Below are positions 47,101-59,100 of a stretch of DNA of 64,000 nucleotides, in pieces. Position numbers and translations under genes: made by a program. The notes beneath the pieces are model-generated. The model searched no databases. It was not told where the DNA came from and saw only the letters and a program-made list of their open reading frames with translations. Position 1 is the stretch's first letter; each line of letters starts with the position of its first letter. Source of the stretch: Mytilus edulis (lineage: Eukaryota); contig NC_092352.1 of NCBI RefSeq assembly GCF_963676685.1, forward strand, positions 47,926,001 through 47,990,000. Direction: 5' to 3'.

Positions 47101-50100
47101 CAATACTCATCTATTAACAAAATGCCATGAATTATGGATTTTATCTTTGTGACCGACAGATAAAACACTATATCCCTTCATATGATTTTATATGCGCATG
47201 TGCAGAAAGTGAAAAGTTGAGGTTTTTTATCTCGGATATATTTTTGCTAAAAGTATAGAATTATAGACATTCAAAAGCAGAATTTTTGCAAACGGATTAC
47301 TGAAACAGTTTTATTTGGTGTCTTGGTGCTTAATTCGATTGATTTTGAGAGATTTTTGAGTTAGACCAGTAAAATCAACGATACCTCAAATATGAGTAAT
47401 TCTCAGGAGTTAGGAGAAAGTACTCGGTGTCCAAATGAAACAGTGGTAACAGCGGAAATTCACAATGAGGAGATAGAATCGAGCAATGTGAGTACCAGTA
47501 TAAATAACTCTTGTAATAACAGTAACATAAGAAAACGCCCAGCTTCTGGAAACTCTGATATATCCGATAATAAACGTTCTAGAAATCAAACACCTGTGAG
47601 TAAAGATGAGAAAAGCAAACCAAAACCTAAACCGAAAGCTAAAAGTGAAATGAAAGAGCTAAAAGATATGATGCTAGGACTAACAGATAGTATGAACAAT
47701 ATGTGTATTTCGTTAACTCAACGCATAGACTCATTAGAGAAAAATATGTCAATAGAAATAACACAACTCATTGAAGAAAAGGTAAAAGTAGAAATCGACC
47801 AGGTGAGACAAGATTTTAATGATCAATTTAACAACTTTAAAGATCAGATAAAAGGGCTGGAGGCAAAAGTTAGTACTCAAGTCAAATCGTATTCAGATGT
47901 GGTAAAACAAAATAACTGTAATGTGATAATCCGTAATCTACAAGAGGACCCTAGAGAGGAGTCGAATACAAGTATTTTGAAAAAAACTGTTATTTCGTTA
48001 GTGCGGGATGGTTTAAATCTTAAGGATGTTTTTATTGAAAGTGTTTCTAGAAAGAAAAGTCACAATAGTAAGCCGGGTGTAATTGTTGCAGCTGTAAGCA
48101 ACAGTGACCAAAAAAGGGAGCTTATGAAAGCAAAGCGTAATTTGAAGAACGTACATAAATTCAAGGATGTGTACATCGAGAATGATATGTCATACTCTGA
48201 GAGGAGAAATGAAGCAAACTTCCGCACTCTGATAAGAGCGTTTCAACACGAAAATCAGGCCTTTACTATGAACGGTGGCCGAATTGTGAAGGTACATCAT
48301 AACAACCAATCGTCAGTGGCAAGTGGTAAGGGCGGAGAAGGCAAACAGAACGAATCCGTCAATGGACGAAATGTACATCAAAATGAAGGAAACAACGGCC
48401 AACGACAAGGATACAGCAATCGTGGAAATATTAGAGGAGGTGGACGCGGAAGAGGGCGTGGTAAAAAATTCCAATAGGTTACATGCGGATTTTGGAATGT
48501 GAACGGATGGAATTGTGACAGGAACAGTGATAAATTTAAACTTGTGTGTGCATGTTTAAATAATAAAGAGCTGCATATTCTGGGTATCGCAGAAACACAT
48601 CTGGTTAAGAACAATACAATTAGTGTTGATGGATATACGTGGTTTGGTCATAACCGAATAGGCATTCATATACGCGCAAAGGCCGGCTCTGGCGGAGTAG
48701 GATTTTTGGTTCGAAATGATCTGATGGAGCTTTTTAACGTTATAGTTGTGGAAGACTCAATAGACGGTATATGTTGGCTTAAGTTCGAGGATAAGTTAAA
48801 TTTGGACAATATTTTCTATACCTGTGTAGTTTATTTGCCACCAGAAAATTCAACGCGCGCCGTGAATGTACATGAATTTTTAGAATCGCTAATGTCACAA
48901 ATGTATACGATTCCAAAGGGTAATCAGTTTTATTTATGTGGAGATTTTAATTCAAGATGTGGTGATTTAAATGACTTTGTTGAAGGTATAGATACCTTGC
49001 CAGAGAGACAAGTAGTTGATTATAAAACTAATAAATACGGCAGCATTTTCTGTGAATTTTTAGCGGACATTAACTGTTGTATGTTGAACGGTAGGAATAA
49101 TAGTCACAATGACTATACCTATGTATCGACAAGAGGATTAAGTGTTGTTGACTATTGTATAGTGCCATACGAAATGTTAAAATCCTTTGATAGGTTTGAA
49201 GTCAGGCGCGTTTCTGCGCTTATTGAAGATGTGGACATTATCGGTATTGTAGACCCGACACGGTGTATGCCAGACCATTCTTTACTCAGTTGGTCAATGC
49301 ACTTGAACATTCATGTTGATGAAAACACCGAGCCAAAAGACAATGCGGCTAGCTTTAAAACCAAATATGACCTTGGGAAAATACCCGACGACTGGTTAAA
49401 TAGTGAATCATTTATATTGGATATAGATCGTATACTATGTACACTAGAAGAGTCTGAAGCTAATCAGTGTGATATTGACAAAACATATGAAAGCTTTATT
49501 AATAGTATCAAGTCGGAAATGTCGGAAAAAATCCCTAATAAGATCATTCAAATTAGCAACGGTTCCAGTAATAAGCATCGGAGAATCAAGAAACCTTGGT
49601 GGAGTACAGAATTAACAGACCTTTGGAACGAGGTGTGCAAATCGGAAACTATGTATCTTAAAACCAAAAGTTGTCATTCTAAAAAACAGTTCCGCCATTT
49701 ATTTTGTCAAAACAGGAAATTATTTGACAAAAATGTACAACAGGCAAAGCGTCGTTATTGGTATAAAATGCAGGATGATTTGACCAGTTCATGTGATAAT
49801 CCGAAAGAATTTTGGCGTAAAATTGGAAAGATAGGCATTGGTGCAGAAAGGCAACGTAACATACCGATGGAAATAAATTTAGAAGATGGTTCGGTATCAA
49901 CAGATCCAATTTCAGTTTTGAATAAATGGAAAAATGATTTTTCTTCAATGTTAAATGTAGAAAATTGTATACAGCCTTCTGAAAATGTCGGCTCTAAAGA
50001 TCAAGATAAATGTGATTATTTATTGGATTGCGAAATTACAAGTGAGGAAATATTTAATGTAATAAAAAAGGCTAAAAATGGGAAGGCGCCCGGTCTTGAT

Positions 50101-53100
50101 GAGCTACCAGTAGAAGTGTTGAAAAACCAAACTGCTTTATCATTTTTAGTTCGTTTGTTTAATGTGTGTTACAATACGGGAAAGGTCCCTGTTCTATGGG
50201 CCAAAGGTGTAATTGTACCAGTACCGAAATGTTCGTCGTCTGACCCCAGAGATCCTCTTTCATATCGTGGAATAACTTTAGCTCCAGCTACTTACAAGTT
50301 GTACTGTGGTGTTCTTGACTGTCGTTTGCGGGAAAAGTTTGATGCATCGGATATTATCCACGATGAGCAGAATGGTTTCCGAAAAGATCGTAACACCATT
50401 GATCACCTTTTGTCTATAACTAGTATAATAGAGTCTAGAAAACTACGTAAACAGTCTACATATGCTGCTTTTATTGACTTTAAAAAGGCATACGATACTA
50501 TAAATAGAGCATTGTTATTTAGCAAATTAGAGTTACTTGGTGTTAGTTCTAAAATGATAAAGGCATTAAGATCTTTGTATAATAATGTTCAGTCTTGTAT
50601 TAAGTTGAATGGTATTTTATCTGACTGGTTCCCTGTTAATACTGGTTTGAAACAAGGGTGTATAATTTCACCATTATTGTTTAATTTTTTCATTAATGAT
50701 TTAATTGATGAAGTCAAAAAGTTAAATGTTGGTATTAGCATAGGTGAAGAAAAAGTGTGTATAATGTTATATGCAGACGATGTAGTTTTCTTAACAGATA
50801 GTGAAAGTGAATTACAAATCATTTTGAATACTTTAGAATGTTGGTGTGATAAAAACATGATAAAGGTTAATTTAGAAAAATCAAAAGTTATGCATTTTAG
50901 AACACCTTCTGTGCCATGTACTAATTTTCCTTTTGTTTTTAATGGAAAATGTGTTGATAAAGTATCAAATTATACATATTTAGGTTTATTATTAACCGAA
51001 CATTTGAGTTATGAGGATATGGCAAAAACAGTTGCCAAATCTGCCAGTAGGGCATTAGGGTTACTAATAGCAAAATGTAAAGCTCATGGTGGTTTTCAAT
51101 ATGATGTATTTACAAAATTGTTCAATTCAATTGTATGGTCAGTGATTGACTATGGTGCCTCTATTTGGGGTTCTAAAGAATTTTCATGTATAAACGCTGT
51201 TAAACATAAGGCTATGAGATTTTTTATGGGAGTGGGTAGATATACCCCTAACTTAGCACTTTATGGAGATATGGGATGGAAACCATGTATTGTTAAACAA
51301 TGGTCTTCCATATTTAGGACATGGTCACGATTTAATAAGATGTCTAATTGTAGACTTAATAAGAAAATTTTTCTTTGGAGTAATAATATCAGTTATAATA
51401 AAGTAAAAAATTGGAACTGTAGAGTGAATACAAAGTTTAAAGAACTTGATCTTAATCAGTATTGTAATATTGAATGTATTTTGAGCAAGTCTGTTATTAA
51501 AGATATTGAAAACAAACTATTTATTATGTACCAAAATAATTGGCATTTAAATTTACTAGCTAATGAAAGCAGTAAATTGCGTACTTACAGGCTATTTAAA
51601 TCAAAATATTGTACAGAAAAATATTTAAGTATTACTATGCCCGGTAAATATAGAAGTGCATATGCTAAATTTAGAGCAGGTGTTGCTCCGATTAAAATTG
51701 AAACTGGCAGATATGAAGGTATAGATGTAAATGAAAGGTTCTGTTTTAATTGTAGAAAGAATGATTTGAATATAATTGAAGATGAAAAACATGTTTTATT
51801 AGAATGCCCAGAATATGCAGATTTGCGAACGATATTTTTTAACAGTGTATGTAATATAGAAAGTAGTTTTAGTAATTTAAGTAATGAAGAAAAGTTTTTA
51901 TTTATGTTTCATGATGATAGAGTTTTACAGCCAAAATCTGCCATGAAGTACTTTTTAAGAGAAAGTGTATTTTATACTCGTAATAAGTGTTTATAATGTT
52001 GTTTGTTTTCTTTTGTATAATTGTTTTTAATAGTATGGTGTTTTATGCTAAGATATATTAATATATGTAATAGATGTAATATCAATGTATTTTAATCTGT
52101 GTTTTTACAGTCTCTCATAACTCTTTTTAGAGTGGCTCTTTTATAAACTGTTAATATTATATTGTGTTGTATATCAAATGTTTTAAAGAGGTGAGACTCT
52201 AATAAATTATTTGTTTGTTTGTTTTTGTTGTTCAAAAACTTCCTTTGACAAAAGATATAAAAATCTTTAAGCAAACAAATGTCAAATTATTCCCCTCAAT
52301 AAAGGTTGAGAAATCATGGACATTATAATATTTTCATTTCTATTCGGTTTTGGTGAAAATTAAAAATATCAACAAACAGTCATAACAGTATGAATGGAGC
52401 TTTGTATGATATTTAACAATGAATTATGCCCAAAACGAGAAGGGTCAACTTGAACTTACTTCCAGTTAAGAGAAATATTGATAATTGTTAAAAGGCTCAT
52501 GGTGACTTCACGATGGAAGACAACAAAACAATACAAACGTTAAATTTTGGGGTTTTACAATGTATATATTGAAATTAATATTGTATCATGTACATTTACT
52601 CCACATCCCTTCATATTTTCATTAGGTAAACGACGAACTTGAATACTTCTTATATACTACAACTAAATATCAGAAAGTTCAGACAGTATAGCAATTCATT
52701 CTCATCGTAACAGCTGAGAAATCTTCGACAAAATGTGTTTATTTGTATTTGTTTGCAGTAAAATTGCAAAGAATTAACAATTTCAGAGGTTTGAAAATCA
52801 CTTTCAGTTACTGAAACATGTTACCTATAAAAACACCTAGAGATCGTTTACGTTGAAAACAAACAAAACAATGGTAAATATATCAAATAGTTATTATAAC
52901 AAAAAGAATGCAAATTATAAATCATATCCTTCGTTCTGACGACGAGTAGTTGTAAGAACATGTTACCATGTTTTACATTTCTAAAAATAACCTGATCTTG
53001 GTATTTCCAAAATATGGGTCATGCATTCTGTGCAAAATAAAACATTGAACATTTATAAATATGTTAAAGTTTATTTTTGACATCTTGAAAAGATAAAAAT

Positions 53101-56100
53101 ATTTTGATACAAAAGTAATATATACTTTTCACGTCTTTGATCTTTGGAAATATCTTTTTTTTATCTGTATTTTGACCTCTCTACCTAAAAATTTCTTTGC
53201 ATGCAGACGTTTAAAAATTGCTGGTTTTATCCAACGCAATAATAGGTTGGAATGTTGTTTTCAATTTAAGGGGGCTCGCGGGTCTAAATCATTTTTTTGG
53301 ATTTAATATAGGATTTTGCAATATTTTTCTATAAATGAACTTTATCTTATACTTAATAGAAAAATGAAATAAAAAAATGGGGTCACCGTTCATTTACGCT
53401 CACAATCTGCCTTCGAAAGAAGCATACATTTTTTTAAATTTCCTTTTTTTCTGTTGAACTAATAAGAGAAATAACGGTAATATCGAAATAAAAAAAGAAC
53501 TAAATAACAGAAATCGCTCAAATTTTACAATTATTTAGTTTATGTACAGCTTATTCGAAAACAACAATAAAAATATAGGTCACCGATGAGTTAAAAAAGA
53601 TATTTCAATTTCAATGCCAAAAAATTGCATTTTTGCACCAAAGGGAGATAATTTGGATCTTTTTCAATGATATCTATATTTTAAAATGTCACCTGCGGCC
53701 AACACGAATTGATTTTTTTGGAATATTTTTTGTACCATATGATAAAGTAACAACTACGAAAGGTAATAAGTAAAATTTGTAATGAAAAATAAATATTTTT
53801 TTTTCTTCTGAAAATCTTATACTCGCGAGCCTCCTTAAACTTGTTTTTATATATATATATATATAACATCGTAAGGTTGATTTTCTAGTCACTTTTTATA
53901 TATATATATATATACATATATATATTGACTCTTTATTGACTCTTTAAATTCAAAAGTTTATCTAAAAATGAGGGTACTTTTTATACGGGCTTCCAAATAC
54001 CGTTTCGATCCCTAACATCACCGAAGAGACATTTATTGTCGAAATTCGGATCTGGTGTACTAAAAAAATATTGACATCGTATGTTTGTGGCATAACATCG
54101 TGGCCACAAGTAAAATTATTTTTCTGTTTAGTATTACATTTATATTAAGATCCATTTTGTTACATCTTGTGATCAATTTTATTTGGCAATCGCCAATGGC
54201 AGTCAGCAGGGTTAAAGAACATCAGTTGTTCGACCTGTTAGTCAAATGCGTTTTGTTTAAATATACTTTTTCACTTTTTTGCTCTTTTGGAAAATGTTGT
54301 GTGTGCTGTTTTTAGATCCTTCTACAACGAAATTTGTTTTACATGCACACGTATAAAAATTGCGGTTTTTATCCAACGCAATCATAGGTTTGAACGTAAG
54401 TTTTCAATTTAGACTCGTTTATATATATACATATATATACAACTCGTTTAAACATCAACCCAACAATGTTAGATCTGTAAATTTGCTTGAAGCCCAGGTG
54501 GTCGTGTGGTCTAGCGGGACGGCTGCCGTGCGGGCAATTTGGTGTCACGATATCTCAGTAGTATGGGTTCGAATCCCGGCGAGGGAAGATCATAAAGTTC
54601 GCGAAAGCAAATTTACAGATCTAACATTGTTGGGTTGATGTTTAGACGAGTTGTATATACATTATGTACACAGCCATATGTATCACCATCATTGCTGGTG
54701 ATCCGATGGATAATTCTGTTGTAGAGTTGTCACTGACTCAGACGTACTTATATATATTCATATATATATATATACAACTCGTCTAAACATCAACCCAACA
54801 ATGTTAGATCTGTTAATTTGCTTTCGCAAATGTTTTGTTCTTCCCTCGCCGGGATTCGAACCCATGCTAATGAGCTATCGTGACACCAAATCGCCTGCAC
54901 TGTAGCCGTCCCGCTAGACCACACGACACCTTGGCTTCATAAAAAACGAAGATTTCGGTGGCCGGGTGTTACCTTTCCAGGTCAGTTTTAATCTAGCGTC
55001 GTACTACAGTACATGATATATAAGGCATGAAGATGTTATTGTTACAGATCAGCTAAATTATCTATAGTAAAGGATCCTACAAATTAATGTAAGTTACAGT
55101 CACAGAAAATAATTATATTTATAAGTACGTCTGAGTCAGTGACATCTCTACAACAGATGTATCCATCGGATCGCCATCAATGATGGTGATACATGGTTGT
55201 GTACATAATGTATATACACTCGTCTTAATATCAACCCAACAATGTTAGATCTGTAAATTTGCTTTCCCAAATTTTTTGGTTCTTCCCTCGCCCGGATTCG
55301 AACCCATGCTACTGTGATATCGTGACACCAAATCGCCTGCACTGCAGCCGTCCCGCTAGATATATATATATATATATATATGTGTTACGATGTTACGATG
55401 TTACGATGTCTACAATATATATATTTTTTTGTAATTATTTTATTTTTGATGATGAAACATGTGAAATTACATAGTACAGTATTCGATACACATTTTAAAA
55501 ATAAAGTAATACTTGATAAATCAATTAAGTCATATGGATATAATAAGATATATAGATATAAATATTACAAAAAGATTTTGTTAATTAATCAAATAAGTTA
55601 AATAAAAGCTGCTTCTAACAAATGCCATTTCTGATCCATTTTTACTTTTTGTACAGGGGTTAAGAAACATACAGAGTATTTTTCTATATTAATCCAATAT
55701 TTTAAATATTCTACCCCACCACATTTTGTGGGGGATATGTTCTTACATCTACATTTGTATATATAATATTTGAAATACAACAAAATATTGTTAACTATTT
55801 TACTGTTGACAAAATCCTCAGACACACCTAAAATGACTTCTTTTGCACTGAAAGGCAGGAGAATGCCATAATTTTTAATCCAATCTATAACGGATAGCCA
55901 GAAGTTTTGTGATACATTACATTCCCAAAAAATGTGAAAAATATTTTCTTTAATTTCTGAACAAAAAGTACAAAGTTCAGTTTCTTTTAATTTACATTTC
56001 AATAAAAATGAATTACATGGTAGAATCCTATGAACAATCTTAAATTGGAAGTTTTGCAAAAAAGAGTTTCTGGTTATGATGAAGGGCATGGAATAAATAG

Positions 56101-59100
56101 CATTCCAATCCTCAATCTGCATATTTAAATCTCTATCCCATTTTTCACGGGAAGATAAAGATAACACTTTATTATCCTCCAAAAATAATGTATAGAAAAA
56201 TTTACAAGATTTTGGTTCCTTTTTAACTTTATCAATAATTTATTTTCAATATTTTCCAGTTTTGAACTACCTTCTAATATACTTTTCCATCTCTTTGGAA
56301 TCGCACTTAAAATACTATAAAATTCTACAAAATTAGTATTGATATCATACTTTTTTTTAAATTCATCATATGAGAATAATGTATTATTATCTGACATAAG
56401 ATCATTAATGAAGAATATACTATTTTCAACATATTTGAACCTCAAAATCATCTTGCCATCTATTTTGATGTTTGGATTCAGCCATATGGACTGGGTCAAA
56501 ATTTCAGTATTGTTTTCAGCTTTAAGCTTATTTTTTAACTTGGAAAAATTTACCAGGATATCATGCCAAAATGGATTAACTTTTTCTGCTAAATAAAGTA
56601 AACCTTCCTGACTTAAGTGTAAAATCTTGTCCCCCCCAAATTTTTGTATATAACTAAGTAGCAAGACTTTCCAAGGAGAGTAGTTTTGGGGATCTAATAA
56701 TTTATACAGCCAAGACATTTTTACACTATAGCAAAAATAATAAATATTGGGCATCTTAAGACCACCATCACAGTGTTCGGACATTATCACTGCCCTTTTC
56801 ACTTTATCAGGTTTTCCTTTCCATAAAAAGTTAAAAAATATATTCTGAATCTCCCTCAAAACCCCTTCTGGGGGGTTAGGAAGGACAGTCAGAACTTGGA
56901 CCAAAATGGGAAGTGCTAAAGTCTTAATAACTACAACCCTCCCAATATATGTCAGTTCTCTATAAGCCCAAGTATTGAGTAATGACTTGATACTGTTTAT
57001 CTTGGCTGTAAAATTACATAGAGTTTTATCCATTTTAGCAAGTTCAAACCATATACCTAGTAGTTTAAACCTCCCAGAATGGTTCCAAACAAGATTTTTT
57101 TCTGGCAAAAGTTTTTCCATACTACCCTTTTTTGACCCAATCCATACGGCTTCGGTTTTGTCAACATTACACCTAAGTCCAGCACATTCTGAAAATTTAT
57201 CAAACAAGTATAAACACTGATTTAGGGATTTTTGGTTACCATCCAGGACTACGGAAGAGTCATCAGCGTATTGACTCAACAGAAATTCAGAGTCATTAAT
57301 TGTTACACCTGCAACCTCAGGGTCATTTTTAATAGCTGCACTTAGTAATTCTAGCACTAAAATAAATAGGTAAGGAGACAGAGGATCCCCTTGACGGACC
57401 CCCCTTTTTAATGAAAAAAATTCTGAAATATAACCATTATTCAACACAGCACTAGAAGCATCACAGTAGCAAGCCTTAATCCAATTTATAAATGTATGGT
57501 CAAATCCATAAAACTGCAAAGCCTCATATATGAAAGACCATTCGACTGTGTCGAAAGCTTTTTCAAAATCGACTAAAAGTAAAAGTCCAGGAATGTCGTC
57601 TTCTTCCATCTTTTCCATTAGATCATAAATAAATCTAGTACATTCGCCAATATACCTACCTTTAAGAAAACCTTTTTGTGTTTGACTAATTATATTTACC
57701 AAGACCTTTTTAAATCTATTTGCTAGACTGGCTGTAGCTATCTTATAGTCTACACACAGCAGTGTGATAGGTCGCCAGTTCTTAAGATAAAACTTTGACT
57801 TACCCTCCTTTGGTATACAGGTAATGAGTCCCTGTCTTTGAGTGATAGAGAACTTTCCATACTCTAAAGCCTCATTTAAACATCTTACTAGTGGAAATTT
57901 AATATCATTCCAGAAAAATTTATAAAACTCAACAGTGAAGCCATCTATACCAGGTGATTTAGAGTTCTTCATATGTTTAAGAGAAGACAGACATTCCTGT
58001 ACTGATAAAGGTCCTTCACATGATTTCACCTCTTCCTCAATAGGTTTTGTAATAAAAGGATTGTCATGCTGAAGAAATGTGCTCCTGTGAGTCTCAAGTA
58101 ACAATGGGTTAGAACTAGTATACAATTTTTTATAAAATTGTTTTTGTTCATTTCTAATAATACATGGATCCGTTATCTCAGATTCGTCCTCCAGAATAAG
58201 TTTGGGAATAATTTTTTCTGTATAATGTTTTTTTTCCAAATTACAAAAATAGTTACTTCCCTTTTCCCCCTCTACTTGCCATCTTGCCTTTACTCTTGTA
58301 ATTATCCCTTTAACATTTTTTTCTCTTATTACTTTTAATTCTAGTTCCAACCCTTCCTTTCTTGTTGTACTGATGGCAAGTTATTCTCTATGAGTTTTTT
58401 TATCTAATAATGATATCTTGTATAATAATTCTTTTTCTTTATTATTTTGTTCCTTCTTCCGGAAAGACGAAAATGAGATTGCAGATCCACGAACTTTCAA
58501 CTTAATCATATCCCACAAAAGCTGATAGCTTATATTAAACTGTTTGTCCTCTGTCTCAATATCAATAGATGGATCAGACTCATATTCTTCAATGACAGTT
58601 TTGATATCCCCTTTAACTTTTTCAATAAACTCAGTTTCCTTCAAAAGACAATATATATATTAACTATCATATTCAACATCTGATACACGACAATTTTTTT
58701 TTCCACACGTATTTTTTAGAACTATTAAATGTGAAAAATACTAACGTAGACTCAGTAGAGGATAGATGAATAAGCTGATTATCATTACAATAACGTCCAC
58801 AATCGTCTGCCGTTTTCTTCTCTTCAAAGGTGTTGCTAGTTCTTTAGTAATTGCTAAAGAACCTAATAATGAGAAAAATGATTGTACGTAAATTGATCAA
58901 AACTGAATTATATTGTCTATTTCAAACTGTCATAGAAGAAAAAATGTATATGTGAATGCGTATGATTTTGATCGAAGTTGAATTATAAAAACATAATAAC
59001 TATTTTCAGATATAACTTTCAAAAAACGAAATGGCAATCTTAAGAATTTTAAAGATTTTGTTGATGCTTATTTTAAGCGATGCTATAACTAACTAATAAT

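Follow-up and report, generated by a model that had tools for sequence, protein, structure and literature searches.

The 64,000-nt stretch of the Mytilus edulis genome analyzed here (RefSeq assembly GCF_963676685.1, contig NC_092352.1, positions 47,926,001 to 47,990,000 of the forward strand; hereafter, the window, numbered from its first letter) carries a full-length non-long terminal repeat retrotransposon of about 5.05 kb at 47189..52239, which we assign to the RTE-X (RTEX) clade. The element lies on the forward strand, as do all features described below unless stated otherwise. Its ends were set by alignment to two sister copies, L311, which corresponds to 47189-52224 at 96.3%, and L310, which reaches 52239 at 97.5%; no target-site duplication of at least 7 nt was found between 47131-47215 and 52196-52300. 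The first open reading frame (ORF1, 47392..48477) encodes 361 aa with a predicted coiled-coil region, a conserved central domain and an Arg/Gly-rich tail, and its open frame spans 47365-48477 with the ATG at 47392. ORF1 ends at a single in-frame stop, UAG followed by G (48475..48478), which we predict to be a readthrough site, and ORF2 (48478..51996) continues in the same frame for 1172 codons from stop to stop without a usable start. The 3' untranslated region (UTR) occupies 51997..52239 and contains a hairpin-like segment (GTCTCTCATAA), an AATAAA signal (52201-52206) and a (TTTG)n tail.

ORF1 had no Pfam match above the cut-off, and its Atlas matches all scored below 0.9 and are leads only. 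By blastp, it has homology to the upstream frames of 39 further families. ORF2 comprises an apurinic/apyrimidinic (APE) endonuclease (Pfam PF03372, aa 6-234), a reverse transcriptase (RT; PF00078, aa 593-837) and a C-terminal part with a Cys/His motif. Its best PDB match was the L1 ORF2p (E 1e-28), and a profile search likewise matched the L1 endonuclease. The order of APE and then RT in ORF2, the 3' AATAAA, the simple-repeat tail and the dispersed copies (six of the window family, on five contigs) identify the element, as judged from sequence, as an APE-type long interspersed nuclear element (LINE). Part of the window ORF2 matches a Mytilus edulis protein at 96% identity. The RTE-X label is indirect, through relatives labelled in a tree-curated library: family F09, of the same clade as the window element, has a 5' end equal to the published consensus M.edulis_122, annotated as RTE-X (PMC10294476), and the RT stretch of A.kagoshimensis_22, also labelled RTE-X, closely resembles the query RT by eye.

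The junction of the two frames reads AAA TTC CAA TAG at the end of ORF1 (TAG at 48475-48477) and then GTT ACA TGC GGA TTT TGG AAT GTG AAC GGA, as described in an original prediction that had been made from the DNA letters alone, and the 1534-aa length given there for an ORF1-ORF2 fusion is correct (361 + 1 + 1172). The first in-frame ATG of ORF2 (48724..48726) is codon 83 and, as also stated there, lies beyond the first strand of the endonuclease and its Glu. Two ORF2 residues upstream of this ATG, N7 and E39, are invariant in 35/35 aligned families and align with the first-strand Asn of the L1 endonuclease and the Glu of its QET motif, positions that we take to be catalytic in that enzyme. 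A start at 48724 would remove both N7 and E39 and thus yield a broken endonuclease, so the sequence bears out the earlier argument that AUG initiation there would be unproductive.

The conservation of the in-frame stop was profiled with two kinds of query. A DNA search of the 1.37-Gb genome returned 22 loci, including all six found copies of the window family, and TAG occurred at the same position in 22/22. The endonuclease protein was used as a second query to escape the bias of a DNA query; 150 of 461 candidates were scored and 125 of these 150 were examined, the 25 left out having no N-terminus, being identical short-contig repeats or being already in the DNA-search set. A total of 49 families was defined at 85% nucleotide identity, with protein identities down to 36%, and their junction stops were TAG in 41, TAA in 7 and TGA in 1. 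The 3' domain of ORF1 was in the ORF2 frame in at least one copy of 46/49 families, the other three being single decayed copies. ORF1-homologous open frames of at least 200 aa shared the ORF2 frame in 68 of 70 cases; the two exceptions were copies of family F20, whose remaining copies are in frame. The frame was kept despite an ORF1 tail that ranges between 4 and 102 codons in length. A separate search added twelve loci, not counted in these totals, with TAG (6), TAA-CAG (3) or decayed junctions (3).

The same arrangement was detected in metagenomic data. Among 38 loci from metagenomes or metagenome-assembled genomes (MAGs), 14 had no endonuclease start and one proved unrelated; the stop is kept in all 23 usable loci (22 TAG, 1 TGA), and ORF1 shares the frame in 19 of them, is off frame in one and was undetected in three. 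Two MAGs labelled Sedimenticola, G001 and G002, had at least 181 and at least 40 LINE-protein matches, respectively, i.e., they include many animal host repeat contigs. One in-frame TAG was found in 40/44 of their RTE-X-like elements with a visible junction, a set that reaches distant lineages at 31-33% identity; of the other four, L221 is stop-free, one is broken, one has no visible ORF1, and L291 has a Met and an ORF1 outside the ORF2 frame. Pooling the 49 families with 17 elements from metagenomes (after removal of two near-duplicates) and 40 MAG elements, which were picked as in-frame so that the fair MAG figure is the 40/44 above, gave 106 junctions with one in-frame stop each (TAG 97, TAA 7, TGA 2). 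The linker from stop to endonuclease takes 19 different lengths between 6 and 299 codons, an ATG lies within it in only 5/106 junctions, and no near-cognate start is available in frame before the first strand in 31/69 junctions, the window copy among them. The original prediction had proposed alignment of copies and related families as its check, and a fixed in-frame stop without an ATG was found clade-wide, confirming the in-frame stop as an RTE-X clade-wide sequence trait. Separately, L258 and L305, from G001 and G002, carry a long Cys/His-rich, partly repetitive in-frame stretch (about 300 and 550 codons) between TAG and endonuclease that is unrelated to ORF1.

In neighboring clades, where 20/21 elements are out of frame, a single in-frame stop was found in 1/19 Proto2-like (a label assigned by motif likeness) and 0/2 CR1-like elements, and in most of these elements the endonuclease is directly preceded by a Met. 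One sister subclade, Proto2-like and recognized by the RT motif GVRQGG[IVL]LST, carries T TTT TTA in frame with ORF1, just 5' of the endonuclease, in 7/7 elements (L282, L285, L286, L290, L306, L307 and L308, from G001 and G002). In the six that were measured, an ORF1 of 790-1021 codons overlaps ORF2 in the -1 frame, and five have no Met before the endonuclease. Judging from these sequences, this subclade likely reaches ORF2 by -1 ribosomal frameshifting on U UUU UUA.

The choice of stop codon at the junction was strongly skewed. TAG makes up 97/106 of the junction stops, compared with 5/41 at the end of ORF2 itself and 3/22 at the ORF1 end of elements outside the set. Published readthrough stop contexts fall into three classes, types I-III (PMC3159437), and the junctions fit them, with UAG-G in 79/106 (type III), UAG-CAA-UCA in family F23 (type I) and UGA-CUA in family F39 (type II); the UAG-G context pointed out in the original prediction is thereby retained across most of the clade. 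A pyrimidine was present at +4 in 9/9 non-TAG stops vs 14/97 TAG stops, and TAA or TGA arose on at least three separate branches of a quick tree (both of our trees were quick trees, built from fetched elements without reference RTs). Altogether, the junction looks tuned for leakiness. Two elements have no stop at this site: L221 (G001:C632) is a stop-free fusion of 1487 codons with TTC where three sisters (54-72% identity) have TAG, and L124 (G000:C9:56475330-56480930), a copy from the genome of the window, lost the stop via a 33-nt in-frame deletion.

The local signals first proposed for the window copy did not hold up. Only 4/49 families have CAA before the stop, and the type I readthrough signal as published sits 3' of the stop (PMC3159437). 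The suggested hairpin right after the stop, with GUUACAU as one arm, is weak (-3.7 kcal/mol alone), lies outside the 126-nt minimum free energy fold (z -0.75) and shows no covariation. More generally, post-stop windows of 60 and 110 nt folded no better than shuffles in the 49 families and 40 more elements (mean z of about 0). No folding or covariation signal was obtained for a compact local pseudoknot or stem-loop of the murine leukemia virus (MuLV) form, pseudoknots not being modelled explicitly, and a search of Rfam gave no match with an E of 1 or below. Pairing of the post-stop motif with nearby Gly-Trp codons was also considered; it showed no covariation and was dropped after a distal partner had emerged. 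The loop of the proposed hairpin coincides with the proximal arm described next, and, as a speculation, it could display or hide that arm in the window family.

The sequence just after the stop was constrained at the nucleotide level. Codons 3-4 after the stop are TGC in 19/25 (background 20%) and CGG in 11/13 (background 6%), and among the ORF2 windows the one covering the first 20 codons ranks highest for synonymous constraint in two of three groups, the runner-up in group A being the ORF2 end. In the window element, a proximal arm 7 nt past the stop (GCGGAUUUUGG, 48485..48495) is complementary over 11 bp to a distal arm 3.44 kb away (CCAAAAUCUGC, 51931..51941), which covers the A-K-I-C codons in the family frame; the two are the predicted 5' and 3' strands of one helix. 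At -14.4 kcal/mol, this is the best uninterrupted helix in the 3.7 kb of downstream RNA, and it persists in the prediction on co-folding with both flanks.

To profile this pairing across the clade, the 24 nt after the stop were compared with the downstream RNA in 44 intact elements, the 3' zone being defined as the final 320 nt of ORF2 together with 250 nt of 3' UTR. The best helix fell in the 3' zone in 29/44 elements, against 6.7 expected and 6, 5, 6 and 4 of 44 for control 24-mers. In 25/29, the proximal arm begins between positions +9 and +12 relative to the stop, at any linker length, and this constancy indicates that the arm tracks the stop and not the endonuclease. The partner site is fixed within each subgroup and differs in sequence between subgroups: in group A it lies 50-63 nt before the ORF2 stop, in group B 263-273 nt before it, and in the long-linker elements mostly in the 3' UTR. 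An element's own partner outscored those of its group-mates in 3/3 groups (18, 38 and 8 of 20000 permutations). In group A, 165/192 cells pair, and one position is A-U in four families and G-C in eight (49 of 20000), a compensatory swap that also alters Ile to Thr; group B has a compensatory swap of U-A to A-U (31 of 20000). In a held-out test on 16 new loci, the predicted site ranked first in 12, came second in 2 and was not recovered in the other 2; counted by new family (n = 9), it was top in 6, second in 2 and missed in 1, and the missed family retains 10/11 pairs. The helix was found in 0/5 out-of-frame relatives, a small control in which 5/22 had the ORF2 end.

Our reading of these patterns is that RTE-X ORF2 is made as an ORF1-ORF2 fusion via stop codon readthrough, likely helped by a long-range 3' helix, and from the sequence comparisons we give it a probability of roughly 0.7. 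Readthrough as such is highly probable, and that the helix acts as its stimulator is probable as well, if somewhat less so. The original prediction of programmed readthrough to a fusion therefore survives as the best reading, with a clade-wide stop behind it, and it is the CAA and hairpin signals proposed for it that do not. On the single RNA, which is read as ATG-ORF1-stop-ORF2 in one frame, ribosomes would start at the ORF1 ATG and mostly terminate at UAG to yield ORF1p, while a near-cognate tRNA would occasionally decode UAG to give the 1534-aa fusion (by analogy with MuLV, at 5-10% and with Gln). Complementarity and covariation predict a helix of 8-16 bp between the post-stop arm and a distal partner at a distance of 3.2-3.6 kb. 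This helix would begin 6-8 nt past the stop, putting structure at the mRNA entry site during stop decoding. On the tombusvirus analogy, ORF2p would be produced only from RNAs whose 3' end is intact, and a readthrough ribosome would melt the helix, limiting ORF2p and favoring its action in cis. The fuller version of this analogy, a tombusvirus-style riboswitch in which ORF2p would come solely from readthrough licensed by pairing with the 3' end of its own RNA, is tentative, and we put its chances a little below even.

Several observations weigh against readthrough or against a role for the helix in it. The in-frame gag-UGA-pol arrangement of Tca2 is a precedent in which the flanks failed to direct readthrough in reporters (PMC2194720). 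L291 is RTE-X-like and yet out of frame with a Met, and the L221 fusion is known from a single contig and its activity is only putative. Regarding the helix, the best one was not at the 3' end in 15/44 elements, and F38, F41, L239 and L223 had no convincing partner. The elements are related, so that the helix p-values are overstated, and the A-U/G-C swap of group A is probably one event. In groups A and B, both arms overlap with codons that are themselves conserved (GFW; AKxC; GRYxxP), which inflates the raw complementarity, and the helix could serve another job, such as RNA circularization or template recognition. Finally, conservation of the frame alone fits an AUG-free restart at the next codon equally well.

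Such a restart is the main rival explanation, and we regard it as unlikely. Here the ribosome, perhaps held by the helix, would terminate and then resume in the same frame, at the codon that follows the stop or directly beyond it, producing a separate ORF2p. Immediate restart after the stop would likewise keep the frame, the stop-start coupling of SART1 requires a downstream structure (PMC5972666), and initiation at L1 ORF2 is AUG-independent (PMC5009743). Against this stand an ATG overlapping the stop in just 1/106 junctions, a post-stop codon that varies (19 codons among 69 junctions), the 31 junctions devoid of near-cognate starts, and linkers of up to 75 and 299 codons without a second stop. 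Restart also leaves aside the strong TAG bias with its readthrough-class contexts and the stop-free fusion relative L221, and those relatives that apparently do reinitiate have an out-of-frame ORF1 and a Met.

A-to-I editing of UAG to UIG (Trp), with the helix as the editing guide, is much less probable. The amber/W site of hepatitis delta virus is edited in this way, UAG is the favored ADAR triplet, and a duplex is predicted near the stop; however, that helix starts 6-8 nt past the stop and excludes it, there is no folding signal around the stop, and the 7 TAA and 2 TGA junctions do not fit. The natural fusion L221 has TTC, not TGG, and a spliced contig of RNA run X2 that crosses the stop differs at two other letters, neither of them at the stop (contigs drop rare variants). 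Four raw RNA runs covered the junction at a depth of roughly 1 or below, too thin for editing or splicing calls.

Production of ORF2 from a spliced or subgenomic RNA, with TAG as a 3' splice site (YAG|G) joining an upstream ATG exon, is slightly less plausible still. The TAG|G suits the acceptor consensus, a public Mytilus gene model (P0052) joins ORF1 to VSCGF here, and the element is spliced elsewhere (47487 to 48092). However, a pyrimidine tract is absent (mean 0.37 over -15..-1, with 0/105 reaching 0.67), the TAA and TGA junctions have no AG, and no joint at 48477 was found in the four contig sets covering the junction. Splicing would give no reason for ORF1 to end precisely there in frame, the gene models P0040 and P0060 bypass the stop elsewhere, as expected of annotation artefacts, and the sole splice seen meets a stop at once. 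The weakest alternative, that the TAG is a nonsense mutation private to a dead element with a single ORF, might draw on the private 7-nt deletion of the window copy near the ORF2 end and is refuted by the TAG in all six found family copies, in families down to 36% identity and in elements of other hosts. Among candidate mechanisms, stop-hopping was rejected, as Tyr-stop-Tyr was seen in F10, F18 and L051 and is too rare to be a general route. The D(V/I)ExNPGP motif of 2A/StopGo was absent from the window translation and from the junction translations inspected.

Other features of the element and its surroundings were also recorded. The splice in the run X2 contig is a sense-strand event within ORF1 that drops 604 nt (47488-48091) with GT..AG ends (donor GTGAGT, acceptor TTGCAG), and joining 47487 to 48092 it meets TAA one codon on. 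The public Mytilus gene models P0040, P0052 and P0060 link ORF1 to ORF2 through small introns placed differently around the stop and are probably annotation artefacts. The 5' end of the element bears the motif TGCGCATG, read in the sequence at 47193..47200 and also present 5' of ORF1 in families F02, F09, F15, F17, F36, F40 and F47; the same motif opens many LINE consensuses of RTE-X, Proto2, CR1 and L1-Tx1 in several bivalves. It is possibly a common internal promoter motif, which we presumptively liken to an NRF1 site. A segment like GTCTCTCATAA is present in 12/24 families, and AATAAA with a short tandem tail in most. Many RNA reads match the hairpin-like segment of the 3' UTR (52103-52140) alone and then diverge into other sequence, and this segment may also be borne by short interspersed nuclear elements exploiting this LINE. 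The window copy has a private deletion (51920..51924): 7 nt present in the sister copies L310-L312, and in 20/25 reads of run X22, are missing near 51922. As a result, the last ~24 ORF2 codons of the window copy are off the family frame, and the copy itself may be inactive. On the minus strand, 55598-58380 holds a second LINE ORF2 remnant, frameshifted (751 + 213 codons) and L1/Tx1-like by eye.

How ORF2 is translated, and why ORF2p prefers its own RNA, are long-open LINE questions, and RTE-X is an old and abundant animal clade. If the proposed mechanism is true, the integrity of the RNA would be tested before the reverse transcriptase is made, the new ORF1-ORF2 protein would be delivered beside the 3' end that it has to copy, which would be a physical basis for cis preference, and melting of the helix by the ribosome would switch the system off. 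Animal LINEs would then be using a gag-pol strategy like that of retroviruses, and a readthrough signal acting at long range would exist beyond plant viruses. The proposal is directly testable: it involves a single stop and a single 11-bp helix for which compensatory variants occur naturally, and more than 100 natural junctions can guide the design. Gene callers misannotate such elements, with invented introns, truncated endonucleases and animal repeats in bacterial MAGs as the outcome.

The novelty is the putative stop codon readthrough in a known LINE clade together with a predicted long-range RNA element. Bivalve RTE-X LINEs were described by Martelossi et al. in 2023 (PMC10294476), whose main text has no mention of readthrough and no description of the ORF1-ORF2 junction. 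A search of the open-access full-text literature found no readthrough in RTE-X and no long-range pairing at a LINE junction, pairing not itself being a search term, and no relative of the element was found in viral contigs. RTEX families are described in Repbase Reports, which lay outside the literature covered, and an earlier note of the in-frame stop there is quite possible.

Readthrough of an ORF1 stop has already been suggested for the Group 3 LINEs of Paramecium (Guerin et al. 2017, PMC5405496), a ciliate-specific clade, where the part of the article dealing with these elements offers the suggestion without signal analysis or long-range pairing. With SART1 and L1, RTE-X shares a bicistronic LINE RNA and an unusual route into ORF2, and SART1 also needs a post-stop structure (PMC5972666, PMC5009743); unlike them, RTE-X has no overlapping AUG, no 63-nt spacer and mostly no AUG before the endonuclease. 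The likeness to MuLV lies in structural and enzyme ORFs in one frame, a UAG-G stop and structure after a spacer of about 8 nt, whereas MuLV has a compact local pseudoknot that was not found in RTE-X, and the RTE-X fusion has no evident protease (PMC4178896). A close parallel in layout is a tombusvirus, carnation Italian ringspot virus, whose p36/p95 readthrough needs pairing of a proximal with a distal readthrough element (PRTE-DRTE) across about 3.5 kb (Cimino et al. 2011, PMC3234231). Placed in a short dual-luciferase construct, the viral readthrough failed (PMC3234231). Both have an in-frame stop before the polymerase and a post-stop element that pairs with a distant 3'-end site, the pairing in the LINE being computational only. 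The tombusvirus pairing is of 6 nt in the bulge of a large stem-loop, whereas that of RTE-X is predicted at 8-16 bp with no large local stem-loop found, and RTE-X is an animal retrotransposon whose distal arm lies within coding sequence in two subgroups. The roles proposed for PRTE-DRTE pairing are rejection of truncated RNAs, cis preference, coordination with copying, and self-limitation by ribosome passage (PMC3234231), and by analogy these would map naturally onto a LINE.

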